Positions 1-33,692 of a stretch of DNA of 36,312 nucleotides are shown piece after piece (position 1 is the first letter of the stretch; each line of letters begins with the position of its first letter). The notes beneath the pieces were generated by a model. The model had not been told where the DNA came from, searched no databases, and worked only from the letters and a program-made list of their open reading frames with translations. This DNA is from a virus (Duplodnaviria; Heunggongvirae; Uroviricota; Caudoviricetes), in IMG/VR virus record IMGVR_UViG_2579778938_000006; one strand, 5' to 3'. Made by a program: the position numbers and the translations under genes.

Positions 1-756
1 TTACGGGGTAATGCCAACCGCTGCCGCCACTTTGTCGCCACTAGTGCTTTGTTTTTCGAATTCATCTAAGGCTCTTTCAACATCAGAAAGATACTCTTTG
101 AATGAGTTCAAGATCATGCTTAACGAGCCCCCCATAAATAGGACCTGTTTTCCATCTTTTTTAAAAAAATCAGGATATTTTTCTATAAGTTCAATAATGC
201 TTTTAATATTTTGCCCGTCGTTTTCTAAGTATTTTGCATCATTATGCGCACAACTGTTTCTTAATTTTGTTATTTTTTTGATATTCGAATAGTGGGATGT
301 TGACTTCATCCCTATCATTTTTTTGATAAATAGATGGCTCCTCTCAAATCCACTTCCTTTGAGATCTGAAACATTTATAGGAGAATGATGTCTATTAGCA
401 AAGTTGTTACAGAATTTTTCTATTTCGTGTTCAAAAATTCCGAATATAGTTAAGAATACTGACCTGCGGATAATACTTGGGTAGTATTCTAAAAACATTT
501 CATCGAGATCTAGCGATGAGCTGGTGAGTCCCATGTAATGATCAATTGACTGGTATACACCATCTTCCGGAGATATTTCAATTATATATTCTTCAGGTCC
601 TTTGTCTTTATATTCTGCTATGCCCTTAGCGATTGATGATTCGCTATGAGTGATTAACGTCTCGATAATATCAAATGTTAAAGAGAAGTCGAATATTGGT
701 AATTGAAACAAAAACTTAACCATGCTTGAGCCTTTAAGAATCTGATTTAGTAACAT
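1..756 (-). CDS. Hypothetical cargo protein (~240-251 aa) with RNxxAH (HEPN-like) motif; candidate Abi/defence or toxin protein
   Basis: AT-rich ORF downstream of int on the same strand; alternative start at 723 (MVKF...) has an AAAGG Shine-Dalgarno and avoids the overlap with int; contains LRNSCAHN; last codons cross the attL core. Confidence 0.55.
   Translation of the reverse strand: MLLNQILKGSSMVKFLFQLPIFDFSLTFDIIETLITHSESSIAKGIAEYKDKGPEEYIIEISPEDGVYQSIDHYMGLTSSSLDLDEMFLEYYPSIIRRSVFLTIFGIFEHEIEKFCNNFANRHHSPINVSDLKGSGFERSHLFIKKMIGMKSTSHYSNIKKITKLRNSCAHNDAKYLENDGQNIKSIIELIEKYPDFFKKDGKQVLFMGGSLSMILNSFKEYLSDVERALDEFEKQSTSGDKVAAAVGITP
19..40. repeat. attL: attL core candidate (cgctgccgccactttgtcgcca)
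   Basis: Matches 33458..33479 at 21 of 22 positions; lies just beyond the 3' end of int as in P2-like prophages. Confidence 0.6.
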
Positions 757-1765
757 CCAAAGTTGCTAGTGGATTGAAACGAAGAGCTGTCTCTAAGTGA
801 TCAGGTGATAGATGAGCATAACGCATAGTCATTTTTATGTCGTGATGTCCGAGGATTTTTTGCAAAGCAAGGATGTTTCCACCCGACATCATGAAATGCG
901 CCGCAAACGTATGGCGCAGAACGTGTGTCAGTTGACCGCGAGGGAGTACGATAGACGTTTTTTCCATCACAGATAAAAATTGAAAATAGCAGTCTGTGAA
1001 GAAATTGAACCCATCAAGCGCCATGATCTCTTCGTAAAGGTCTTTACTGATAGGGATGCTTCTGTTTTTCTTCCCTTTCGTTCTTACAAAGGTAATTCGG
1101 TATTTGGTTACCTGTGAGCGGGTAAGATTTACGGCTTCACGCCAGCGTGCGCCTGTGCTTAAGCATATCTTAACTACCAGTGCCAGTATTGGGTCCTGAC
1201 GTTTGCAATCAGCCAGCAATTCAACAATCTGCTCATGAGTAAGCCATGCCATCTCCTTTTCTGCGATGGTGAATTTTCGCATGTTCTCCAGTGGGTTCGG
1301 ATACGACCATTCGCCAAGGCGGGATAGTTCGCTAAAAACACTACTTAGATAGCTTTGCTCCAGGTTAATGGTGACCGGGCTTGCTCCTTTCTTCCATTTC
1401 TCGCTGAAGTAGATCTCGCCTGTCAGGCGTTTATCTCGATAGTGGGCAAACATTTTAGAGGTGAGATCAGTTGCAAGGGGATTGCCCAGAGCGTCAACCA
1501 TCAGCAGCAATTTGTCATAGACATGCTGCCCAGCAGTCAGTGATTTACCATGTAGTTTGAACCATAGCTCAACCACGTCTTTCAGTGTTCGACGATCCAC
1601 TGATTCACCTAGCCAGGGCTTTGCTTCGGTTTCTTCCATCGTGTGACGCTCAAAAGCCAGTGCTTCGCCTTTGGTGGCGAATTGTTTACGCACACGACGC
1701 CCACTACGTCCGGCGGGGTAACATTCGCAAAGCCATTTTCCTGTGGTGAGTTTTCGTACAGCCAT
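734..1765 (-). CDS. int: Tyrosine integrase (P2/186 Int family)
   Basis: Translation has conserved tyrosine-recombinase blocks (LSTGARWREA, HVLRHTFAAHFM, ILGHHDIKMTMRYAHL); likely start MAVRKLTTGKW at 1765 rather than the upstream ATG at 1921. Confidence 0.9.
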   Translation of the reverse strand: MAVRKLTTGKWLCECYPAGRSGRRVRKQFATKGEALAFERHTMEETEAKPWLGESVDRRTLKDVVELWFKLHGKSLTAGQHVYDKLLLMVDALGNPLATDLTSKMFAHYRDKRLTGEIYFSEKWKKGASPVTINLEQSYLSSVFSELSRLGEWSYPNPLENMRKFTIAEKEMAWLTHEQIVELLADCKRQDPILALVVKICLSTGARWREAVNLTRSQVTKYRITFVRTKGKKNRSIPISKDLYEEIMALDGFNFFTDCYFQFLSVMEKTSIVLPRGQLTHVLRHTFAAHFMMSGGNILALQKILGHHDIKMTMRYAHLSPDHLETALRFNPLATLDVTKSDS

Positions 1766-1953
1766 AAAAAATGCCCTCCAATAGAGAGCATTTTTACTGT
1801 ATGCATAACCAGTGTCAATGTATGAAATCCTACGACCATACATCTCACTGAAGCCATAATTAAGTTGGCTATTCTTTTTGCTATGTGAGCATGTAATTTT
1901 TGCGTTTAACCTGCGGCTCATTTTTATTTTAGGCGCAGATATAAAAGCAAAAG

Positions 1954-2160: not shown

Positions 2161-2736
2161 CTATTTAACATACTTGACTGTTAAACTTATAATTTTACCA
2201 ATTATTTCAATGTCTTCTATCTTGCATTCGAAGGCTCTGTTTCCACCCTCGACGAAGATTCTTCCACCGGGTAAACGAGTAATGTCACGGATCGTTATTT
2301 CGCCATCAATACTTATTACCCATTTACCATCACGTATATCATCAAATTCCTTATCACAAATAAATTCAGAATTATTATCTGTGATTACAAAAAGATTCTT
2401 GAATACCGACGGTAGAAATTCCCTATCGAAAATATAAAAACCGTCTTCACACAAGGCCCCATCAGATAATACATATTTAGCAACTTCCATAGTATTTGTA
2501 TTACCTGAAGTTTGCTTTGAACCATGCCCGGTTGTGAGCCAATTAAGCGAGGTGCCCGTTTCAAGGGCGCACTGGATTACCCATTCTGCGGGGAATGAGT
2601 CACGCATGTAGCGTGTGGCGAGTGTACTTTTAGAGATTCCTAAATGATCGCACAACGCCTGTCGAGTCTTGAATCCATAAGCTTCTACCATGCGCTCTAT
2701 AGCGCCTCGTCCGCCTTTCTCCAAATTCATGGTCAC
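2161..2736 (-). CDS. cI: CI-type immunity repressor (186 CI-like, 191 aa, N-terminal HTH)
   Basis: Position immediately upstream of int on the same strand and divergent from apl/cII; HTH-like segment LCDHLGISKSTLATRYMR; size matches 186 CI rather than the ~100 aa P2 C. Confidence 0.8.
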   Translation of the reverse strand: MTMNLEKGGRGAIERMVEAYGFKTRQALCDHLGISKSTLATRYMRDSFPAEWVIQCALETGTSLNWLTTGHGSKQTSGNTNTMEVAKYVLSDGALCEDGFYIFDREFLPSVFKNLFVITDNNSEFICDKEFDDIRDGKWVISIDGEITIRDITRLPGGRIFVEGGNRAFECKIEDIEIIGKIISLTVKYVK

Positions 2737-3103: not shown

Positions 3104-3619
3104 TTGACCATGTTTGATTACCAAGTTTCCAAACATCCACATTTTGATGAAGCCTGTCGTGCATTCGCACTGCGCCACAATCTGGTGCAACTGGCAGAAC
3201 GTGCAGGTATGAATGTGCAGATTCTGCGGAACAAACTGAACCCAGCTCAACCTCATTTATTAACCGCACCAGAAATCTGGCTGCTTACCGATCTGACTGA
3301 AGATTCAACGCTGGTAGATGGTTTTCTGGCACAGATTCATTGTCTGCCATGTGTACCGATTAATGAGGTGGCAAAAGAGAAACTGCCACATTACGTCATG
3401 AGTGCAACCGCAGAGATCGGGCGTGTTGCTGCAGGTGCGGTGTCTGGCGATGTAAAAACCTGTGCCGGTCGTCGTGATGCTATCAGCAGCATTAACTCTG
3501 TAACACGACTGATGGCGCTGGCGGCTGTTTCATTGCAGGCCCGTTTACAGGCTAATCCTGCGATGGCGAGTGCAGTTGATACCGTGACTGGCCTCGGTGC
3601 TTCATTTGGTTTGCTGTGA
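3104..3619 (+). CDS. cII: CII-like lysogeny-establishment activator (171 aa)
   Basis: Second gene of the early operon; size and position as 186 CII. Confidence 0.6.
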
Positions 3620-4433: not shown

Positions 4434-4660
4434 TGGCTGATGCAATGGATCTCGTACAGCAGCGCGTTGAAGAAGAACGCCAGCGCCATATCCGTGCTGC
4501 CCGTGCCAAAACACCGGGCGTGTCTCGCGTGCTTTGCATTGAGTGTGAAGCGCCAATTCCGCCAGCACGCCGCCGTGCCATTCCGGGTGTGCAGCTTTGC
4601 ATTACCTGCCAGGAAATTGCAGAGCTGAAAGGCAAACATTACAACGGAGGTGCTGTATGA
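4433..4660 (+). CDS. TraR/DksA-family C4 zinc-finger protein
   Basis: CIECEAPIP...(17 aa)...CITCQ pattern; P2 orf82-like position upstream of the replication gene. Confidence 0.7.
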   Translation: MADAMDLVQQRVEEERQRHIRAARAKTPGVSRVLCIECEAPIPPARRRAIPGVQLCITCQEIAELKGKHYNGGAV

Positions 4661-5514
4661 GCACCATCCTGAAATGGGCGGGAAATAAAATCGCCATTAT
4701 GTCCGAACTGAAAAAACACCTTCCTGCTGGCCCGCGACTGGTTGAACCTTTCGCGGGTTCCTGTGCTGTGATGATGGAGACGGATTACCCCAGCTATCTT
4801 GTTGCGGATATTAATCCTGATTTAATCAACCTCTATAAAAAGGTTGCTGCTGATTGCGAGGCGTTTATATCTCGTGCCAGAGCTTTATTTGAGGAAGCAA
4901 ACAGGGAGGTGGCTTATTACAACATAAGGCAGGAGTTTAATTACTCCACTGAAATTACTGATTTCATGAAAGCGGTATATTTCCTGTATCTCAATCGTCA
5001 TGGTTACCGTGGATTATGTCGCTATAACAAGAGCGGGCATTTCAACATTCCGAACGGTAATTATAAAAATCCGTATTTCCCTGAAAAAGAAATTCGCGCA
5101 TTTGCAGAGAAAGCCCAGCGTGCAACGTTTATCTGCGCAAGCTTTGATGAAACGCTGGCGATGCTGCAGGTGGGGGATGTGGTGTATTGCGATCCGCCGT
5201 ATGACGGTACGTTTTCCGGCTATCACACTGATGGCTTCACTGAAGATGACCAGTATCACCTGGCATCCGTTCTTGAACATCGATCATCTGAAGGTCATCC
5301 GGTCATTGTTTCTAACAGTGACACATCCCTGATTCGTTCGCTGTATCGCAATTTCACTCACCACTACATCAAGGCAAAACGCAGCATCGGCGTGTCGGCT
5401 GGCGAGAGTAAATCTGCAACAGAAATCATTGCTGTTTCCGGGGCGCGCTGCTGGGTGGGATTTGATCCTTCGCGTGGCGTGGATAGTTCTGCCATGTACG
5501 GAGTGCGTGCATGA
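4657..5514 (+). CDS. dam: DNA adenine (N6) methyltransferase, Dam family
   Basis: Motif I FAGSCAV and catalytic DPPY; N-terminal WAGNK; ATGA overlap with the upstream gene. Confidence 0.85.
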
Positions 5515-7925
5515 GCCATGATGATATGAACAACTGCAGCGGCTTTAACGAGGTCGCCGCAGCATTCTCATGGAACAGCCCGAAAAAGGCTATTAACCCT
5601 TATCTGGACCCGGCGGAAGTTGCGCCGGTTTCTGCGCTTTCAAACCTGATCACTCTGTACGCTGCCGATAACGAGCAGGAACAACTGCGCCGCGAGGCAC
5701 TGAGTGATCAGGTCTGGGAGCGTTATTTCTTTAATGAATCCCGTGATCCTGTCCAACGCGAAATGGAGCAGGATAAGCTCATTAGCCGGGCAAAGCTGGC
5801 GCATGAGCAGCAGCGTTTTAACCCGGACATGGTCATTCTGGCAGACGTTAACGCCCAGCCTTCCCATATCAGCAAGCCGCTGATGCAACGTATTGAATAC
5901 TTCAGCAGTCTGGGCAGGCCAAAGGCTTATTCCCGCTATTTGCGTGAGACGATTAAGCCATGTCTGGAACGACTGGAGCATGTACGCGACAGTCAGCTAT
6001 CCACTTCTTTTCGCTTTATGGCAAGCCATGAAGGGCTGGACGGCCTGCTGATCCTGCCTGAAATGAGTCAGGAGCAGGTGAAACGCTTGTCTACCCTTGT
6101 CGCTGCGCATATGAGCATGTGCCTTGATGCAGCTTGTGGCGATTTGTATGTCACCGATGACGTTAAGCCAGAAGAAATCCGCAAGACATGGGAAAAGGTG
6201 GCAGCGGAAACCCTGCGTCTGGATGTCATCCCGCCTGCGTTTGATCAACTCCGCCGGAAAAGAAACCGCCGTAAACCCGTGCCCTATGAACTCATTCCGG
6301 GTTCGCTGGCGCGTATGTTGTGCGCCGACTGGTGGTATCGGAAATTATGGAAGATGCGTTGCGAATGGCGGGAAGAGCAGTTGCGCGCTGTCTGCCTGGT
6401 CAGCAAAAAAGCATCTCCTTATGTCAGCTATGAAGCCGTGATGCATAAACGTGAGCAGCGCCGTAAGTCGCTGGAGTTTTTCCGTTCTCATGAACTGGTG
6501 AACGAAGACGGCGACACGCTGGACATGGAGGATGTGGTAAACGCCAGCAGCAGCAACCCTGCGCATCGCCGCAATGAGATGATGGCCTGTGTTAAAGGTC
6601 TGGAGCTTATCGCGGAAATGCGCGGTGACTGCGCCGTTTTCTACACCATCACCTGTCCGTCACGTTTCCATTCCACGCTAAATAACGGCAGGCCCAACCC
6701 GACCTGGACAAATGCGACGGTAAGACAAAGCAGTGATTATCTGGTCGGCATGTTTGCTGCATTTCGTAAGGCGATGCACAAAGCCGGATTGCGCTGGTAT
6801 GGCGTGCGGGTGGCTGAGCCGCATCATGACGGTACAGTTCACTGGCACCTGTTGTGTTTTATGCGCAAAAAAGATCGCCGCGCCATTACTGCTTTGTTGC
6901 GTAAGTTTGCCATTCGTGAAGACCGCGAGGAGCTGGGTAATAACACAGGACCACGCTTTAAGTCTGAGCTGATAAACCCGCGCAAAGGTACGCCAACAAG
7001 CTACATCGCGAAATACATCAGTAAGAACATTGACGGGCGTGGTCTGGCTGGCGAGATCAGCAAGGAAACGGGTAAATCCCTGCGTGATAACGCTGAATAC
7101 GTTAATGCCTGGGCGTCTCTGCATCGTGTTCAGCAATTCCGCTTCTTTGGTATTCCAGGGCGTCAGGCTTACCGTGAACTGCGGTTGTTGGCTGGTCAGG
7201 CGGCAAGGCAGCAGGGTGACAAAAAAGCAGGTGCGCCGGTACTGGATAACCCGCGCCTTGATGCCATCCTGGCTGCTGCTGATGCTGGCTGTTTTGCCAC
7301 CTACATTATGAGGCAGGGCGGCGTGCTGGTTCCTCGCAAATATCACTTGATCAGAACCGCTTATGAAATCAATGAAGAGCCGACCGCCTATGGCGATCAC
7401 GGTATTCGTATTTATGGCATCTGGTCACCCATTGCAGAGGGCAAGATCTGCACTCATGCAGTGAAGTGGAAAATGGTTCGTAAAGCCGTTGACGTTCAGG
7501 AGGCGGCAGCCGACCAGGGCGCTTGCGCCCCTTGGACTCGTGGCAATAACTGTCCCCTTGCTGAAAATTTGTACCAACAAGGGAAAGACAAATCAGCTGA
7601 TGGGGATACCAGAACGGATATCACCCGTATGGATGACAAGGAGTTGCACGATTACCTGCACAGTATGAACAAAAAAGAACGCCGGGAACTGGCTGCAAGG
7701 TTACGCCTGGTGAAACCGAAACGGCGTAGAGACTACAAACAGCGAATTACAGACCATCAACGACAGCAGCTCGTCTATGAACTGAAGTCCAGAGGATTTG
7801 ATGGCAGCGAGAAAGAGGTCGATTTACTCCTTCGCGGCGGCAGTATTCCGTCAGGAGCAGGCCTGCGTATCTTCTATCGGAACCAGCGTTTGCAGGAAGA
7901 TGATAAGTGGCGGGATCTGTATTAA
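5511..7925 (+). CDS. A: Replication initiation protein A (rolling-circle HUH endonuclease, P2 gpA family)
   Basis: 804-aa protein with HUH-like VHWHLL and tyrosine block [10 protein letters not shown]; position after the early regulators. Confidence 0.85.
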
Positions 7926-8078: not shown

Positions 8079-8267
8079 ATGCAGGACTATTTTTTGGAGT
8101 CTTTGAAGCTCCAGCGCATTGATTTTTTTCTTAAGCTTGTAGCGGCTAGTGAGTGTAGTGATGAAGAGAAGGGGCTGGCTCTGCAGTGGGTTTCTGAATT
8201 GACTGATGAACTCATGGCAAAAATCAGAAGCCACGAATACAACCGCTCAATGGATGTCATCAGCTGA
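8079..8267 (+). CDS. tum: Tum-like SOS-inducible small protein (candidate antirepressor N-terminal module, 62 aa)
   Basis: AGGAGGA SD; directly downstream of the LexA box; position of 186 tum. Confidence 0.45.
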   Translation: MQDYFLESLKLQRIDFFLKLVAASECSDEEKGLALQWVSELTDELMAKIRSHEYNRSMDVIS

Positions 8268-8277
8268 GGTGACTTTT

Positions 8278-8511
8278 ATGCGCATTGAAATAATGATCGA
8301 TAAAGAGCAGAAAATTAGCCAGTCTACCCTGGACGCCCTTGAATCCGAGCTTTACCGCAATCTGCGCCCCCTGTATCCCAAAACGGTAATTCGTATCCGC
8401 AAAGGTAGCTCTAACGGTGTGGAACTGACCGGACTGCAACTGGACGAAGAAAGAAAACAAGTGATGAAAATTATGCAGAAGGTGTGGGAAGACGACAGCT
8501 GGCTGCATTAA
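8278..8511 (+). CDS. DinI-family protein (77 aa)
   Basis: Translation MRIEIMIDK...LDALESEL...IRIRKG...ERKQVMKIMQKVWEDDSW aligns by eye with E. coli DinI (MRIEVTIAK...IDALAGEL...KQRISEILQETWESADDW). Confidence 0.75.
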   Translation: MRIEIMIDKEQKISQSTLDALESELYRNLRPLYPKTVIRIRKGSSNGVELTGLQLDEERKQVMKIMQKVWEDDSWLH

Positions 8512-9016
8512 GAAACGTTGCTGGCGTCTGAACTTGCTTCTGGCGTCAGCAAGGTTGAATAACGAGCTGTGCGAGGCGTTAGCCATCTGATCAAAAGACA
8601 TCAAATATCATATTGTATATCGTGGTCAAACGCTGGAAACAATCATTCCCGGTCAGAGGGGCTTCTTTCAATGTCTAAAAGAGTGAGATAGAGGATACAG
8701 GATGGGAAGAGCTTATGATGATTGTTCTTGGATTGACTTGGAATATTTGATGTCCATTATCTAATGGACTTGGTCTTGATAGTTATCACGAAAGAGGAAG
8801 CCAACGTCATGTATTTGAAGAGTATCTCTTACCTTTTGATTAATTATTGTCCAAGTTTTTCAAAAGCTTCTTATCTGGCGGTCGATACATGATTTACTGT
8901 TGGATATGGTATTTAAAATTAATCTTTACACTGTGGTATATGCAGAATAGGATATTATCAATACAATCAAACTGTTTTCATACGGTTGTTAATATTGCAA
9001 TGTTATAGGTAATGTC

Positions 9017-10135
9017 ATGTATCTTTTCAAGTATTACCGTCCGGACTTCTTCTTCGAGAAAGCTATTCGTTATAATGAATTATATTTTTCCGCTCCTGCG
9101 CAATTGAATGATCCTAATGATCTCAATATAGATTATCGTTTTGATAATAAATTGAAATTATGGGATATTTTATTGCGTTCTCCTTGCGATAAATCCTATA
9201 AAAATTTGAGTCACATATTAGATTTGAGTAATTTGAATATACATAAGGGATTGAATCGTATTTTTAGAGGAAAAAAAATAAAAAGTAGCATTGAGTCATT
9301 AGATAGCCTGTTTGACTCACACGTTGATGAGATACGTAAGATCATAAATGATGGTTTACTACCTATCAATGTGATTAATTCCGCTATTTATGGGAATATT
9401 CCTGAACCACGCCAATTTTTGGTCTCACTTTGCGAGAACAGTATCAAAGAAAGGTTGTATAGGAAAATAGTTCCTGCAGTATTCAGTGTGTCATTTTCAG
9501 CTAATGCGTTAGATCGTATGATGTGGGCGCATTATGCTGCAGGCTTTAGTGGTTGTGTTGTGATTTATGAAACGCAGGATTTTAATATTAATGGCGTACC
9601 ACATCCTGGAATGAAGTTAAGAGAAAATTTATTTTCATCAGATAAAATTAATTTTCCAGTTAAGCCAATAAAATATAGTAATCAAGCTAAAGAGGTTTCA
9701 CTTCTAGACCCAAGCGCAAATGTTGCAGAGTTATTTTTAACTAAAAATAGATTTTGGAGATATGAAGCTGAATATCGAATGTTTATTCCAGAGGCAAATG
9801 CAGGAATAGGGAGTGAGCGGCATGTTCAAAGACACGTAAATCGAAATATTGGACATGTTTTTCATCATGATGCTAATGTTGTTAAAGGGATCATTTTTGG
9901 TCCTAGAATGTGTGAAATGAAAAAAGAAAGCATATGGAATTGTATCAAGTCAAATATGGAGAATTCAAATTCAACAATATGTTATTTTTTTGACTCTGAG
10001 TTATCAGCATCAGGAAAGATTACTATTTCAAAAGGGCAACGAGCGGAAAAAATGAAAAATTTCCCTTTGTTCAGGAACAAGTTAAGTCAGACGGAAATGG
10101 CTAAAGTTTTGAAGGAAATTGGCATTACGAACTAA
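9017..10135 (+). CDS. Hypothetical 372-aa cargo protein, DUF2971-like N-terminus; candidate anti-phage gene
   Basis: Very AT-rich; N-terminus LFKYYRPDFFFEKAIRYNELYFSAPAQLNDPNDL resembles the DUF2971 signature as I recall it; own terminator downstream; in the P2 old/tin hotspot position. Confidence 0.6.
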   Translation: MYLFKYYRPDFFFEKAIRYNELYFSAPAQLNDPNDLNIDYRFDNKLKLWDILLRSPCDKSYKNLSHILDLSNLNIHKGLNRIFRGKKIKSSIESLDSLFDSHVDEIRKIINDGLLPINVINSAIYGNIPEPRQFLVSLCENSIKERLYRKIVPAVFSVSFSANALDRMMWAHYAAGFSGCVVIYETQDFNINGVPHPGMKLRENLFSSDKINFPVKPIKYSNQAKEVSLLDPSANVAELFLTKNRFWRYEAEYRMFIPEANAGIGSERHVQRHVNRNIGHVFHHDANVVKGIIFGPRMCEMKKESIWNCIKSNMENSNSTICYFFDSELSASGKITISKGQRAEKMKNFPLFRNKLSQTEMAKVLKEIGITN

Positions 10136-10201
10136 CCTAACAACAGTGCATGCCTATGCTGCCTGAATTTGCATGACCGTTTGAGGATCGTTTTTGCTAA
10201 G

Positions 10202-10225
10202 GCCCGCCAGAACTGGCGGGCTTTT
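10202..10225 (+). terminator. Rho-independent terminator (GCCCGCC-agaact-GGCGGGC-TTTT)
   Basis: 7-bp GC stem, 6-nt loop, T-run; 67 bp downstream of the 372-aa gene stop. Confidence 0.7.
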
Positions 10226-10270
10226 GCGTGGATCAGGCACCTGCATGAAAACCACTACACAAAGCGGGCA

Positions 10271-10283
10271 GGCGTGGCGGGGA
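10271..10283. other. cos: cos-like motif GGCGTGGCGGGGA (possible cohesive-end site)
   Basis: Matches the first 13 nt of the P2/186 19-nt cohesive end as I remember it (GGCG[A/T]GGCGGGGAAAGCA); diverges after that. Confidence 0.3.
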
Positions 10284-10409
10284 TACGAGCGCGCGCTAGA
10301 AACGTTTACTGATATTCTTGTAGTACATTGCATTTTTCTTTTTTTATGTCATATCATTAGCCATTTGAATAGGACATTATTATCAATTTGTTGTCTCTGA
10401 GGATAAGTT

Positions 10410-12191
10410 ATGAATTTTGATGCAACACCACTAAATATAAAAAACATTCTATCTGTAAAACAAAGATATGTTATTCCTCGTAATCAACGTGAGTTTAGTT
10501 GGGAAAAGCTTCAGCTTGAAGAGTTATGGCAAGATATTGTCAGAAACATAAGGTTGAATGAAGATGGACAGAACTTGGAGTGTTCAGAATATTTTATAGG
10601 GACTATTGTTCTTTCTGGAGCAGATAGTGATGATGTATTAGAAGTGGTTGATGGACAACAACGATTTTCAGTTATTACTATATTGCTTTCATTAATATCG
10701 CGTAAATTGCGTTCCTTAGGGCAAGATTCATTAGCGGATGATATATTTAAAACATATATCGTTACTGTGAGTCCTACATTTAGCAGAAGCCAATTAGCTT
10801 CAAATGGTGAGACATTTATTGAAAAATTAGCAAAAAATAGCGATAGAACATATTTTAAGTTAAAATATCAAGATCGCGAAGAGCATCAAGTTGATGAATC
10901 TTGTGAAGAGGATGTACGTATAAGTTATGCAGGAATTTTTCTTTCTAGAAAACTAGGGAGGAAATCACTCTGTTCTGCATTGTTGCGAGATGGTGCAAAA
11001 CATTATAATAACCAAGATTATATATTTTGTTTGACTGCTGTATATAGAATGATTACCAATTATTTGAAGTTGGTAAAAATATCTGTAGGTAAGGAGGATG
11101 ATGCTTATGATATTTTTGAAGTGTTGAATGCTCGAGGGATAAACTTAAGTTCAATTGATTTGATAAAGAATAAAGTATTCCAAACTTGCACTCAAACATA
11201 TCCGGTAGATATTGCAAAAACAAAATGGGATTATATCGTTACTCAAATTGAGTCTAGGGATAGTAATAGCACTATTGCTGATTATATTAGAACGTGGTGG
11301 CTTTCTAAGTATAATTATATTGGAGAAGATCAACTTTATCGTGCTTTTAAACGTGAGATTCAAGATGAGAATACTTTATTGTCATCAGCATCATTTCTGA
11401 ACGAATTATATGATGATGTTGAATTATACTGTAAAATAATAGCGCCAAATACAGATGACTGGCCTCAACCTGATCAGCGTGAAATTTACAACTCGTTAAA
11501 AGCATTCGAGATTTTTAATGTGAGTATTCCTCGACCATTTGTACTCTCATTACTTAGAAAACGTAAAGAGAAACCGAGAGCCCTTACACAATCAATGCTG
11601 ATAGAATGTTTGAAGTCCTTAGAGTCATTTCACTTTAAGTTTAATGCAGTATGTCGTCTAAGACCATCTGGAATCGATGCAAAATATTCTGTATTAGCAG
11701 TAAGAATGAATAAGGCATTAAATAAAAGAGATGTTGAGGGTGTTATTAATGACGCGTTAGATTATTTTACACAGAAAGGGCCTTCAGAAAATATATTCAA
11801 ACAAGCATTTTCAAAGAATATTGTTTATACAAATAAAAAGTCTGGGCAAAGGAAGTTGATTGTTTATATTTTTGACAAATTGGAACGTATCAGACGAGGG
11901 ACACGAGAGTTAAAAATGGATATAGTTTCTTTGGAACACATATCATCTCAAAGCAAAACTAACGAGTCAGTCGTGGGTATGATTGGTAATTTACTACCAC
12001 TCTGTTTTTCACTTAATGAAGATTGCAAAAATTATGAGTTGCACAAAAAAATAGAATCTTATAAAAAATCTGATTTAAAATTAGTTACAGAGTTTGTTAG
12101 TGAGTCAGAAGCAAGAGAACATAAATGGGATGATTCATTAATAAAAGAAAGAACAGATAGCTTGGCGTTAGAAACGTTTGCTAAAATATAA
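10410..12191 (+). CDS. DUF262 (ParB-like/GmrS) + DUF1524 (His-Me finger/GmrD) fusion nuclease, 593 aa; GmrSD/BrxU-like type IV restriction candidate
   Basis: Motifs VIPRNQREFSWE, VDGQQRFSVI, FEVLNARGINLSSIDLIKNK (DUF262) and SLEHISSQ...GNLLPL...NEDCKN (DUF1524-like); AT-rich; GAGGA SD. Confidence 0.8.
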   Translation: MNFDATPLNIKNILSVKQRYVIPRNQREFSWEKLQLEELWQDIVRNIRLNEDGQNLECSEYFIGTIVLSGADSDDVLEVVDGQQRFSVITILLSLISRKLRSLGQDSLADDIFKTYIVTVSPTFSRSQLASNGETFIEKLAKNSDRTYFKLKYQDREEHQVDESCEEDVRISYAGIFLSRKLGRKSLCSALLRDGAKHYNNQDYIFCLTAVYRMITNYLKLVKISVGKEDDAYDIFEVLNARGINLSSIDLIKNKVFQTCTQTYPVDIAKTKWDYIVTQIESRDSNSTIADYIRTWWLSKYNYIGEDQLYRAFKREIQDENTLLSSASFLNELYDDVELYCKIIAPNTDDWPQPDQREIYNSLKAFEIFNVSIPRPFVLSLLRKRKEKPRALTQSMLIECLKSLESFHFKFNAVCRLRPSGIDAKYSVLAVRMNKALNKRDVEGVINDALDYFTQKGPSENIFKQAFSKNIVYTNKKSGQRKLIVYIFDKLERIRRGTRELKMDIVSLEHISSQSKTNESVVGMIGNLLPLCFSLNEDCKNYELHKKIESYKKSDLKLVTEFVSESEAREHKWDDSLIKERTDSLALETFAKI

Positions 12192-12197
12192 GTTCAG

Positions 12198-12218
12198 TGG
12201 CAGGTATAGTACCTGCCA
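12198..12218. terminator. Perfect hairpin (TGGCAGGTA-tag-TACCTGCCA) between convergent genes; possible bidirectional terminator
   Basis: 9-bp stem with 3-nt loop between the stop of the DUF262 gene and the stop of Q; no strong T-run. Confidence 0.4.
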
Positions 12219-12227
12219 TTATTCAAT

Positions 12228-13265
12228 TCACATACACTCCACAGAGTATTCACTGAATGAGATGATGTTTTTTTTAGCCCATTCATTAAGTTGCAGAATA
12301 TGTTTTTGAATTGGTAGTAACTCATTCATAACAAATACTTTCGCGGCCTTTTCCACATCCCCAAACCCCCCAACATTATTAGGCATAATCCCCATCATTT
12401 GCGGTGGCACACGATGCGCCGCCATCATGTCATCCCGGCTCACGTTCTTGATGTTTAGAAACTCATCCTTCGCCGCCACTTCTGACAACGGGATAATCTG
12501 AAGTCCGTCCTTTTTCCCGTTAGGCGAGTACATAAATAGGTTGCGGAAGTTACCTGGTCCTTTGGCGCTTTTCATCGCATTGCGGAGGTTGTTCACGTCC
12601 TCCTGGTTCTGCGCGGCATCGGTCATGTACATGATGAAGCCAGCATGACTGCCGTTTATGTAATACTTTCGACGGAACAGCGTGGCGGACTCATTGAGCA
12701 GGGCGGACGGAATAGCAGAAAGATAGCCGGGCAGGCCATAGATCTCCTGATTTATGTCCGGTTCCATCAGATGGAAAATGCTGCCTTTCGTGAACTGATA
12801 CGGCTGCGTAGTCATGCCGTATTGCACAAACCAGTAGGTATCCAGGTCTAATCCGCGTCGGGTGTATTTTGCCAGAGCAGGCTCAAGGGCGATAACTTCA
12901 CCGAACCGGTTTGTGCGTTTCTCCAGGTAGGCGTTACCAAATACCAGATAGTCCTGCACAAAACGCGAAAAAGCCTGCTGGCTGAGCAGCGGATGAGGGA
13001 TATAGGTACTGGTCAGAATGTTGCATTTCACCGCAATTGGTGAACTGTGGTGCACGGCAGCGCGGAAGGTGCGCGCCAGTCCGTCAAAGCTGACGGGCGG
13101 CTCATACCAGCGATCTGTCTGTACGCATTCCACATAGTCCAGCAGTTCTCGGCGGTCCAGAACAGGAACGGGATCGCCGAAGCTGAATACTTCGGCTGTA
13201 GTCTGGCTTTTAAGCTGGATCTGTTTCGTCGCCGCAGCGCGGTTTTTCTTACTCTTTCCCATCAA
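12228..13265 (-). CDS. Q: Portal protein (P2 gpQ)
   Basis: 345-aa ORF, P2 synteny (Q-P leftward, O-N-M-L rightward); overlaps the P stop. Confidence 0.85.
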   Translation of the reverse strand: MMGKSKKNRAAATKQIQLKSQTTAEVFSFGDPVPVLDRRELLDYVECVQTDRWYEPPVSFDGLARTFRAAVHHSSPIAVKCNILTSTYIPHPLLSQQAFSRFVQDYLVFGNAYLEKRTNRFGEVIALEPALAKYTRRGLDLDTYWFVQYGMTTQPYQFTKGSIFHLMEPDINQEIYGLPGYLSAIPSALLNESATLFRRKYYINGSHAGFIMYMTDAAQNQEDVNNLRNAMKSAKGPGNFRNLFMYSPNGKKDGLQIIPLSEVAAKDEFLNIKNVSRDDMMAAHRVPPQMMGIMPNNVGGFGDVEKAAKVFVMNELLPIQKHILQLNEWAKKNIISFSEYSVECM

Positions 13266-15028
13266 AAAATCTCCACAATATTGCTGGTATTGGCGGACTC
13301 GCCCTGCAGCGGTTCGTTAAACAGTGCGTGCATTGTTGCCCAGGCCAGATCGGCATGGCTGGTTTCTTCGCTGCGGCTGGCTTCATAGGTTGGGCGGTTG
13401 CCGCTGGCAGTGGTGGCGCGACGGATTGCCATAAAGGACTGCGCTATGTCGGTGTGCCCGGCGTCAAACTCTAGGCGGCGGTGGCTAATAATGTCGTAGG
13501 CCTTGAGTACCAGGGCGTTTTTAACGTTGGGGTTGTAGACAAACTCCCGGATGGCAGGAAAAAACGCTTTCACGTTCTCGTAAACCCCGTGACCGACGCC
13601 GGTTGAGTCGATACCGATATATGTCACGTTGTACTGTTCGGTCAGTTTTTTGATGGCGTCAGCCTGGGCGCGGAAGTCCATTCCGCGCCACTGGTGACGC
13701 TCAAGAATGCGGAACTTACCACCTGGCACGGCTGGCGGTGCCACCACCACGCATCCGGCGCTGTCGCCGTTCTGCGTACCTTTTGCCGGGTCATAACCGA
13801 TCCACACTTCGCGCCAGCCAAACGGGCGCAGCGCCAGTGCATGAAAGTCGGTCCAGACTTCCCAGCTGTCTACCATGCACGCCTGCAGCTCGCTGAGCGG
13901 GAATACGGACGCGAGATCGTCCACGAACTCACACATCAGCAGATTCTGGTATTCGTCCGGGCTGTACTCCATGCGCAACTGGTCAAGGTCGAACAGGTTA
14001 CATCCGCCGCGCACCGCATCTTCCACAGTGACTATCTGGCGGTACTGCCCGTCTGCGCACAGCAGGCCGGGGGCCAGATTGCTGTGGGACAGGTCGATGT
14101 CCACCTTATCGGCTTTGTTGCGCCCTCGGTTGAACAGCGCACCGGACCAGAACGGATAAGCACTGTGTGTCAGGCTGGATGGCGTGGAAAAATAGGTCTG
14201 TCGCCATTTTTTGTGAATAGCCATACCGGAAGCCACTTTGCGCAGCTCCTGGAATTTCGGTATCCAGAAATATTCATCCAGATACAGGTTGCCGTGGTAA
14301 CTCTGGGCCGTGCGGGCATTGGTGCCGAGGAAGTAAAGCGTGGCCCCGTTAGGAAGCACCATCGGATCACCTTTCAGCTCCACCTCGACTTCTTTGGCGA
14401 AATCGATGATGTACTGCTTAAAGACGTGAGCCTGTGCCTTACTGGCAGAAAGGAAAATCTGGTTACGTCCGGTAAGCAGGGCGTCAATCAGGGCCTCACG
14501 GGCAAAATAGAAGGTCGCGCCGATCTGGCGTGACTTTAGCAGGTTGCGGATGCGGTTGGTTTTTCCGGCTTCCCACCAGTGGCGCTGGTAGTTAAACATG
14601 GAGGAATGGAAAATTTCTTCCAGCTTCTCAATTTGTTCATCGGTGAAAACATTCTTTTCAGGCTGACGGCGTGGGCCTTTGTTGCGGTTGGCGACGTTAG
14701 GGTTTAAGTCGGCTTCGTTGCCGCCATTGTTAAACTTGCCGATCCGCGCGTGGCGTTCAGACTGGCGCGCCAGCAGGTCAATCTCTTTGAAATCTTTCCC
14801 TTCTTTGTGCTCCTTCATGATGAGCTGGCAGTAGCGTGCGGCGGTGGTGAGCTGCATCTGATCCAGCGGCCCATAGTCACCCCACTTGTCGCGTTTTTTC
14901 CAGCTGTGAACGGTTGCAACTTTCTCGCCCAGCATTTCAGCAATGCGGGCTACGCGGTATCCCTGAAAGTACAGCAGCATGGCCTGCCGACGGGGATCGA
15001 GATCTGCGGGTGTCAGTGTGGTGTTCAT
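13262..15028 (-). CDS. P: Terminase large (ATPase) subunit (P2 gpP)
   Basis: 588-aa ORF, synteny with Q; divergent from O. Confidence 0.85.
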   Translation of the reverse strand: MNTTLTPADLDPRRQAMLLYFQGYRVARIAEMLGEKVATVHSWKKRDKWGDYGPLDQMQLTTAARYCQLIMKEHKEGKDFKEIDLLARQSERHARIGKFNNGGNEADLNPNVANRNKGPRRQPEKNVFTDEQIEKLEEIFHSSMFNYQRHWWEAGKTNRIRNLLKSRQIGATFYFAREALIDALLTGRNQIFLSASKAQAHVFKQYIIDFAKEVEVELKGDPMVLPNGATLYFLGTNARTAQSYHGNLYLDEYFWIPKFQELRKVASGMAIHKKWRQTYFSTPSSLTHSAYPFWSGALFNRGRNKADKVDIDLSHSNLAPGLLCADGQYRQIVTVEDAVRGGCNLFDLDQLRMEYSPDEYQNLLMCEFVDDLASVFPLSELQACMVDSWEVWTDFHALALRPFGWREVWIGYDPAKGTQNGDSAGCVVVAPPAVPGGKFRILERHQWRGMDFRAQADAIKKLTEQYNVTYIGIDSTGVGHGVYENVKAFFPAIREFVYNPNVKNALVLKAYDIISHRRLEFDAGHTDIAQSFMAIRRATTASGNRPTYEASRSEETSHADLAWATMHALFNEPLQGESANTSNIVEIF

Positions 15029-20989: not shown

Positions 20990-21520
20990 TTACGCACTTA
21001 ATAAACTTAAATAACTTTTTATGCTTTGGCAAAAAGGGAAAAGGTCTATTTTAATTTTCCAGTTTTTTTTGTTTTGAACCCCAGAAGCAATAATAGAACC
21101 ATCCCAATATTTTATTCCATTTTTGCCGGTCTTTTTTGTTAACTCAAAACTTAATGCGTGAATAATTTTATTGCAGCATTCGCGTATAGAACCTTTAACA
21201 TGACCATCTATAACAAAAAGTATATTTTCATGTTCTTCAAATGCTTCTTTCTCAGGTGAGTAATCTGGGTTCCACTCATGTTCACTAGTGTCTTGGAGAA
21301 TTCGTAGTTTTGTACAAAGGCTAATAAGATTGTTGCTAATGGTATATTCCAACCATCCGTTGTACGATAACTCCTCCATTTCAAATTCAGTTACTATAGA
21401 ATCATCATATACTTTCTGTGTGGAATATATACGCTGTAAATAAAATTCAGATGAACAGCATAATTGCTCAATTATTCTTGCGTGTTCTTCTATAGCGTAA
21501 TAATCAATTGGATGGCTCAT
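20990..21520 (-). CDS. Hypothetical moron protein (176 aa; 189 aa if started at 21559) between tail genes S and V on the opposite strand
   Basis: AT-rich ORF antiparallel to the late operons; AAAGG SD before ATG 21520; convergent with S, divergent from V. Confidence 0.6.
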   Translation of the reverse strand: MSHPIDYYAIEEHARIIEQLCCSSEFYLQRIYSTQKVYDDSIVTEFEMEELSYNGWLEYTISNNLISLCTKLRILQDTSEHEWNPDYSPEKEAFEEHENILFVIDGHVKGSIRECCNKIIHALSFELTKKTGKNGIKYWDGSIIASGVQNKKNWKIKIDLFPFCQSIKSYLSLLSA

Positions 21521-21551
21521 TCTTTTACCTTTCTTCGATTGGAATTGTATT

Positions 21552-21569
21552 TGTGTCATTTACCACACA
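21552..21569. promoter_or_regulatory. TGT-N12-ACA dyad (Ogr/Delta site) upstream of V (PV-like late promoter)
   Basis: TGTgtcatttaccacACA centred ~55 bp upstream of the V ATG. Confidence 0.45.
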
Positions 21570-33534: not shown

Positions 33535-33580
33535 AACAAAAAACCCATCAACCTTGAACCGAAATGGCGGGGTTGATGGG
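33535..33580 (-). terminator. Rho-independent terminator downstream of ybjL (minus strand)
   Basis: 10-bp stem CCCATCAACC / GGTTGATGGG followed on the minus strand by TTTTTTGTT; loop is long (17 nt). Confidence 0.5.
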
Positions 33581-33692
33581 CTCCACAAAATGGGGACATC
33601 AAAGAAAAGCAGTGGCACTAATTAAGACTGATGCCCTGCGGAAAAGTTCTGCGGTTGTGCAAAAAAATTTCATTTTCAGGGCAACTTCAGTT

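Follow-up and report, generated by a model that had tools for sequence, protein, structure and literature searches.

What is the function of the AT-rich gene that lies between the packaging site and the portal gene of a 186/P2-like prophage of Escherichia coli? The prophage was analysed within IMG/VR record IMGVR_UViG_2579778938_000006 (36,312 nucleotides, nt; this whole stretch is referred to below as the window), the flank of which (ybjL, ybjM and the small RNA RybB) is 100% E. coli. The gene encodes a protein of 593 amino acids (aa) that is a member of the GmrSD superfamily and of the PADLOC HEC-06 family. We favour the reading that it is a stand-alone, single-protein defence nuclease, in which a nucleoside triphosphatase (NTPase) domain gates a His-Me-finger nuclease, and that hypermodified phage DNA is probably its trigger. 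The gene and its main parts are:

10410–12191, plus strand: DUF262 + DUF1524 gene, 593 aa, ATG start, GmrSD superfamily, HEC-06/DndI branch
10399–10403, plus strand: Shine-Dalgarno sequence GAGGA, 6 nt before the ATG
10437–11180, plus strand: DUF262 / ParB-like NTPase domain, aa 10–257 (Pfam and invariant columns)
10650–10664, plus strand: DGQQR NTP-hydrolysis motif, aa 81–85, invariant in 117/117 sequences
11781–12167, plus strand: DUF1524 His-Me-finger nuclease domain, aa 458–586 (Pfam and predicted beta-beta-alpha element)
11934–12017, plus strand: catalytic core, comprising E509-H510 (11934–11939), G526-N527 (N527 at 11988–11990) and N536 (12015–12017)

A preliminary description of the window had reported an open reading frame of 593 aa at this place, and its coordinates, strand and ATG start were confirmed exactly. 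The product is 100% identical to WP_001008289.1 (RefSeq), and all of the peptides quoted in that description are found in the translation: VIPRNQREFSWE (aa 21–32), VDGQQRFSVITILL (aa 80–93), FEVLNARGINLSSIDLIKNK (aa 236–255), VSLEHISSQSK (aa 506–516) and GNLLPLCFSLNEDCKN (aa 526–541). The ATG start is credible because the N-terminus is conserved among homologs, M1 being almost invariant across 80 aligned sequences. The gene does have its own Shine-Dalgarno sequence, as claimed, and AAGGA or GGGAA replaces GAGGA at the same spot in loci with diverged orthologs. Its description as an AT-rich gene on a GC-rich backbone, placed between the replication/SOS module and portal gene Q, also proved correct. 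The G+C content is 0.322 (32.2%) compared with 0.50–0.56 for gpA, Q and P; the gene is held in an AT-rich island at about 8500–12500 within a phage backbone of 50–56% G+C, with DinI (8206–8511) on one side and Q on the other.

Both domains proposed earlier were found by Pfam well above their gathering scores. GmrSD_N (PF03235) scored 113.3 bits (cut-off 33.2) over aa 10–257 and the whole profile (positions 1–199 of 199), and GmrSD_C (PF07510) scored 45.2 bits (cut-off 23) over aa 458–586; the two are joined by a long helical linker. In an alignment of 117 sequences, E509-H510, G526-N527 and N536 are present in every member (117/117), and further invariant residues are Y20, R24, Q26-R27, S30-W31, A232-Y233, F236-E237, L239-N-A241, G243, D250-L251, Q514 and P530, while R242 is arginine in 116 of the 117. 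Several of these fall in an FExLNARG...DL motif at aa 236–251, inside the DUF262 domain. The reading H-I-S-S in place of H-x-x-P had been taken as a possible sign of a divergent subfamily, which did not stand: at position 513, where proline was expected, serine occurs in 58 sequences, proline in 40 and cysteine in nine, so that EH-I-S-S is the commonest state within the clade and no defect. An AlphaFold model built on an alignment of 80 homologs (mean predicted local distance difference test score, pLDDT, 87.8) carries H510, N527 and N536 on a beta-beta-alpha element (strands 507–510 and 528–531, helix 533–539). A single-sequence model with a pLDDT of 32 was discarded. Catalytic sites apart, no motif of the family is more strongly conserved than AY-IFE-LNARG-L---DL at 11100–11159 (aa 231–250).

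That the gene is a decaying or inactive remnant is scarcely credible on these data. The reading frame is full length and every catalytic or nucleotide-binding residue is both intact and invariant; many genomes encode the protein at 100% identity, and an ortholog series falling from 83% to 44% identity keeps its length (586–606 aa).

When defence-system profiles were searched, as the preliminary description had advised, the protein matched a HEC-06 profile of PADLOC from end to end (PDLC04154, 7.4e-75, 250.7 bits, aa 3–587 against positions 7–558 of 569), and a second HEC-06 profile (PDLC04157) gave 2.7e-73. Profiles named 'Orf5' were nearly as strong (5.8e-66), those of SspE and mREase_IV far weaker, and no NCBIfam model matches the protein. 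Of the 890 relatives that a database search yielded, nearly all of the top 120 are two-domain proteins of 570–606 aa; the hosts are Enterobacteriaceae, Aeromonas, Vibrio, Shewanella, cyanobacteria and Bacteroidota. The likeness to GmrSD/BrxU enzymes that had been proposed holds at the level of the superfamily, both Pfam domains being present, and not for the nearest relatives, which belong to the HEC-06/DndI branch and not to BrxU sensu stricto.

The tested HEC-06 protein is WP_096851903.1 (Payne et al., bioRxiv 10.1101/2024.01.29.577857), to which the window protein is 24% identical; the two are collinear over about 430 aa, in a comparison that covered the first 399 aa of HEC-06. Both are encoded by a single gene without partner genes and consist of DUF262, a helical linker and DUF1524 in about 560–600 aa; both have DGQQR and the EH nuclease motif, each essential in HEC-06, where the substitutions Q79A/R80A (DGQQR) or E471A/H472A (EHICP) abolished defence (bioRxiv 10.1101/2024.01.29.577857). 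R85 of the window protein matches R80 of HEC-06, and E509-H510 matches E471-H472. They differ in setting, as HEC-06 sat inside an Hma system whereas the window gene is prophage cargo between cos and Q, and in two details of sequence: where HEC-06 has EHICP the window protein has EHISS, and the residue that corresponds to DndI Y25 is Phe in HEC-06 and Asn in the window protein. HEC-06 was reported to block T4. A 22%-identical homolog, HEC-06Bact, restricted T-even phages and spared T4-GT7, which has unmodified cytosines (PMC12366544).

Other characterised members of the superfamily were compared as well. GmrSD sensu stricto and BrxU (PDB 7P9K) have the same two Pfam domains and the same design of an NTPase and a His-Me nuclease in one polypeptide; they occur as stand-alone or embedded defence genes and target DNA with hydroxymethylcytosine (hmC) or glucosyl-hmC. 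The RLFDS nucleotide-binding motif of BrxU is missing from the window protein and its structural match to BrxU is not close. SspE (PDB 6JIV/7DRS) is larger (about 770 aa, compared with 593 aa), linked to sspABCD, and senses phosphorothioate (PT) through Tyr30; by sequence, it can be aligned only with aa 3–111 of the window protein. The earlier statement that GmrSD, BrxU and SspE are modification-dependent nucleases was too general, since neither SspE nor DndI is a modification-dependent restriction enzyme. Two defining features of DndI, a sensing Tyr and dnd linkage, are missing from the window protein, as are those by which SspE and BrxU sensu stricto are defined.

In the favoured reading, the DUF262 NTPase, with its intact DGQQR, would be coupled to the DUF1524 nuclease (E509-H510, N527, N536), and the gene would presumably be expressed in the lysogen from its own leader. 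The lysogen would be protected from superinfecting phages, the DNA of which would be nicked or cleaved under NTPase control. The most probable trigger would be hypermodified DNA (hmC or glucosyl-hmC of T-even phages), in a restriction of Type IV kind as reported for HEC-06 and HEC-06Bact, and Dam- or Dcm-methylated host DNA would be left alone. We infer expression in the lysogen, the anti-phage activity of the protein, its dependence on modification and its tolerance of Dam/Dcm methylation; what the present analysis establishes is the domain architecture, the intactness of the catalytic residues, the fold, the mobility of the gene, its stand-alone setting and the lack of a phosphorothioation partner nearby.

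Several points weigh against this proposal. Dependence on modification is argued from distant relatives, the tested HEC-06 being only 24% identical, and DndI, the closest solved relative, follows the opposite logic, in that a self mark holds it back. Target specificity is not readable from the sequence, and activity of the clade to which the protein belongs is a prediction. A consensus scan of 8400–12400 gave 20 promoter-like sites where 17.6 were expected, none of them in the leader of the gene. Finally, the model is at its least confident in the strongly conserved stretch at aa 231–250 (pLDDT 52–59, and below 50 at aa 240–245); such conservation combined with low confidence suggests a hinge or interface that may become ordered only upon dimerisation or ligand binding.

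A nuclease of the same family could instead respond to something other than base hypermodification, such as unmodified foreign DNA, a phage protein or replication intermediate, or act as an abortive-infection toxin, in which case the range of phages affected would not follow hmC or glucosyl-hmC. The GmrSD-like fold does serve several different logics (BrxU, SspE, DndI), the protein is distant from all tested members (24% to HEC-06, 17% to DndI), and genes of the abortive-infection (Abi)/AIPR type are among the other cargo of the same slot. Yet both stand-alone proteins of the HEC-06 group that have been tested are active against T-even phages, one of them sparing T4-GT7, and a constitutively active nuclease unable to tell self from foreign would be toxic, as DndI is without PT, whereas this one is stably kept at 100% protein identity in many lineages. 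We regard a different trigger as rather unlikely, and hypermodified DNA as the better candidate.

DndI is a self-mark sensor and has the structure closest to the window protein. It is the product of ORF5 in the dpt/dnd cluster of Salmonella Cerro 87, a gene renamed dndI later, and is an ATPase-coupled nickase (PDB 9JFL; PMC11662687). PT-modified DNA stimulates its ATPase through Y25, leading to release from self DNA, and cells free of PT are damaged (PMC11662687). The model of the window protein has a similar global fold at 17% sequence identity, and the family profile aligns to the full length of DndI (E 1.3e-38), pairing R87 of DndI, which that enzyme needs for defence, with R85, E507-H508 with E509-H510, and the nuclease-essential N541 with N536. 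At the sensing position, part of a P-x-Y-Q patch, where DndI has Y25 and SspE Y30, the window protein has Asn25 (in P23-R24-N25-Q26). N25 is found in 45/45 cluster representatives at ≥44% identity, Tyr and Phe clades appearing only at ≤43%. Representatives with Y25 and F25 stand alone too, so residue 25 by itself does not discriminate between contexts; its use (N/Y/F) as a predictor of dnd linkage was dropped, the tested HEC-06 itself having Phe.

If the window protein were a PT-sensing nuclease of the DndI/SspE type, PT marks of the host would stimulate the NTPase and free the enzyme, and unmarked phage DNA would be nicked. DndI is co-transcribed with dndFGH and needs phosphorothioation by IscS-DndBCDE; the window gene is without dnd linkage. 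Among linked genes, no dnd or ssp gene was detected in the 36-kb window or within 7–9 kb flanks of six different homologs, and the sensing Tyr is replaced by Asn in the window protein and in all 45 representatives at ≥44% identity. DndI senses PT and harms PT-free cells, yet the window gene moves freely between hosts, riding temperate phages and a plasmid across E. coli, Enterobacter, Klebsiella, Salmonella and others. PT sensing is thus very improbable, as an enzyme toxic without PT could hardly travel between unrelated hosts and dnd linkage is lacking. The absence of dnd/ssp genes nearby, together with Asn at the position of DndI Tyr25, is the reason for reading the protein as a stand-alone nuclease.

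In some carriers, a gene with a PAPS-reductase (phosphoadenosine phosphosulfate reductase) domain lies between the Dam methylase gene and gpA (locus L003, 1978–2988; locus L005, 2017–3027). DndC belongs to the PAPS-reductase family. Because the window and most other carriers are without it, this gene is not a consistent partner.

A variant of the DndI logic can also be conceived, in which the N25 clade would consist of nucleases of the DndI type that are released by a self mark but have lost PT sensing, reading another mark or none. DNA would then be restricted for lacking the mark and not for being hypermodified. A candidate mark would be Dam methylation of GATC, supplied by the host and by a D12-class methylase of the prophage (4597–5514). 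The sampled hosts of the N25 clade are Enterobacterales, Aeromonas, Vibrio, Shewanella and Pseudoalteromonas, all from orders known as Dam-positive. We consider this variant improbable.

The distribution of the gene identifies it as horizontally acquired mobile cargo. Among 5426 complete E. coli genomes, 50 carry it, in every case on the chromosome, in single copy and at least 99% identical; about 1249 of the 5426 have a similar P2-like cos/Q junction, and about 4% of these carry the gene. Related phages with a backbone 92–94% identical have different cargo at the same place (Abi/AIPR, Hypoth_Ymh and other genes), as expected from the cargo swapping claimed for this site; the gene is not part of a conserved core of 186-like phages, being replaced elsewhere by unrelated genes. 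The same slot holds orthologs at 83% identity in Enterobacter and Klebsiella and at 69% in E. coli and Salmonella. Across cos, its neighbour varies between a 141-aa hypothetical protein, the validated defence gene PD-T4-7, an HNH protein and, in the window, a DUF2971 gene. With four different neighbours in E. coli, an ortholog that is the sole cargo between DinI and Q (locus L007), and relatives alone on a plasmid and on chromosomes, the claim of a stand-alone, single-gene system is well founded. For the more distant relatives found alone, identity was 45% on an IncFII plasmid, 37% in lambdoid prophages of Klebsiella, 43% in an islet of Enterobacter and 51% on the chromosome of an Aeromonas. 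A tblastn search of 50,697 phage records returned only 23%-identical genes of Listeria phages, and none of the phage records searched by megablast carries the DUF262 cargo.

The commonest arrangement in E. coli has PD-T4-7 on the DinI side of cos (locus L002, 4675–5733, G4/9 and many similar; PADLOC 2.8e-144), which gives these prophages two different putative defences, one on either side of cos.

The position of the gene relative to cos was established from the following features:

10145–10297, unstranded: cos packaging block, G+C 0.575, conserved at 87–92% identity across 87 records of P2-like phages, bounding the DUF262 slot on the left
10271–10289: cohesive end GGCGTGGCGGGGATACGAG, 19 nt, homologous, flanks included, to the annotated P2 cosL GGCGAGGCGGGGAAAGCAC
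10298–10409, plus strand: AT-rich, cargo-specific leader, G+C 0.277
12228–13265, minus strand: portal gene Q, conserved, bounding the cargo slot on the right
9017–10135, plus strand: neighbouring cargo gene, 372 aa, in the DinI–cos slot, DUF2971 / PADLOC PDC-S31 candidate

Since cos (10271–10289) precedes the gene start at 10410, the gene lies between cos and Q. Conservation between loci stops abruptly at about 10297, beyond which the AT-rich leader differs from one ortholog group to the next. In P2, old and tin are located between gpA and cos, ahead of cosR, and the interval from cosL to Q is 168 bp with the tQ terminator. The preliminary description had assigned the gene to the old/tin hotspot of P2; it is indeed within the variable gpA–gpQ hotspot, but on the portal side of cos and not on the old/tin side, which in the window is filled by the DUF2971 gene. 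The order cos, gene, Q was seen in 22 of 23 P2-like loci, drawn from E. coli, from contigs of assemblies and metagenomes, and from 14 viral contigs of IMG/VR. In the exception (L036, IMG/VR contig 3300007106_000010), no cos block was detected, and a 63% ortholog has a portal homolog upstream, with the relative orientation of the two genes reversed. Published surveys have handled gpA–gpQ as one hotspot. The cos site splits it into two independently assorting slots, DinI–cos and cos–Q, each with conserved anchors.

A gene so placed might be a packaging accessory, that is, an HNH-type nuclease aiding terminase cleavage at the adjacent cos. An HNH nuclease assists terminase cleavage at cos in HK97-like phages, and here an HNH/His-Me gene is flanked directly by cos on one side and by the portal and terminase genes on the other. 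The distribution of the gene leads us to reject this reading, which is extremely unlikely: P2 has no gene at this place, only 168 bp with a terminator; among E. coli genomes that have a comparable P2-like junction, the gene is present in only about 4%, and elsewhere unrelated genes take its place. Its composition is foreign to the backbone, homologs are also found outside phages, and the DUF262-NTPase and DUF1524 design is unlike the small HNH proteins of packaging systems.

The 372-aa neighbour has a borderline Pfam match to DUF2971 (22 bits, equal to the cut-off) and matches PDC-S31 of PADLOC at 2e-23. Of the 5426 E. coli genomes, 27 have the DUF2971 gene, and none of these 27 has the DUF262 gene as well. 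In one of them, strain ARL09/232, the DUF2971 gene has an AIPR gene as its partner in the cos–Q slot. It is independent cargo and no part of the DUF262 module.

The window gene is a new member of a known defence family, and its protein was already catalogued as cargo of the P2 hotspot. Rousset et al. (2022, PMC9122126) described a cos-proximal hotspot of P2-like prophages, and the window gene is likewise AT-rich, variable and located in gpA–gpQ; their table of hotspot arrangements (Table S5) gives WP_001008289 as 'DUF262/DUF1524'. No DUF262/DUF1524 gene is named with the validated systems in the main text of that paper, where five inactive cloned systems are left unnamed, and supplement file 7 covers Vibrio and Bacillus systems, not the tested P2 ones. 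Within the main text of a 2026 survey of P2/P4 hotspots the family was not found, nor did the literature yield a paper testing WP_001008289 or its clade.

Signals that might govern expression of the gene are:

10328–10357, plus strand: weak promoter candidate, with TTGCAT (10328–10333) as a possible -35, an 18-nt spacer and TATCAT (10352–10357) as a possible -10
10202–10225, plus strand: terminator-like hairpin GCCCGCCAG-AA-CTGGCGGGC followed by TTTT, in the cos block, below the T-run threshold of the scan
12199–12217, unstranded: hairpin GGCAGGTA-TAG-TACCTGCC, in the 36 nt that separate the stop codon of the DUF262 gene from the convergent portal gene

Because the consensus scan gave no site in the leader, no promoter is claimed beyond this weak candidate. 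The two hairpins bracket the gene; judging from its sequence, the first would shield it from upstream transcription, and the second occupies the place of the tQ terminator in the P2 annotation. A search of Rfam gave no RNA family near the gene.

Other features of the prophage are those of a 186/P2-like phage:

734–1921, minus strand: integrase
2161–2736, minus strand: CI-type repressor
3104–3619: CII
4597–5514: D12-class Dam methylase
5511–7925: gpA
8206–8511: DinI
13262–15028, minus strand: terminase P
20990–21559, minus strand: 189-aa open reading frame
1–756, minus strand: 251-aa AT-rich open reading frame
33535–33613, minus strand: RybB, host small RNA gene

RybB (Rfam, 105 bits) lies directly outside the right end of the prophage, between an ogr-like gene and ybjL, which places the integration site at or beside rybB. 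The 189-aa frame forms a sharp AT-rich dip (G+C 0.32) between the tail-completion genes and a baseplate gene, presumably the position of P2 orf30; it has no match in Pfam or PADLOC and may be another cargo slot. The 251-aa frame (G+C about 0.34) lies beyond the integrase, near the left end of the prophage; it has no Pfam match and only a marginal PADLOC match to HEC-01A (E 0.005). The integrase–att interval is a minor defence hotspot of P2 according to a 2026 survey in Nucleic Acids Research.

A DUF262 gene of this kind would be flagged automatically by PADLOC and similar standard tools, and the division of the P2 hotspot by cos into two independently recombining slots is a small practical refinement for mining such loci. 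If the protein is active, then GmrSD-like restriction, probably of Type IV, would be added to the traits that P2/186-like prophages confer by lysogenic conversion. The gene is present in about 1% of complete E. coli genomes, many of them from clinical isolates, which bears on the choice of T-even-like phages for therapy. The clade marked by N25 and EH-x-S stands between the modification-dependent HEC-06 enzymes and the PT-sensing DndI, and its specificity would therefore help to show how this fold switches between cutting the marked and sparing the marked.

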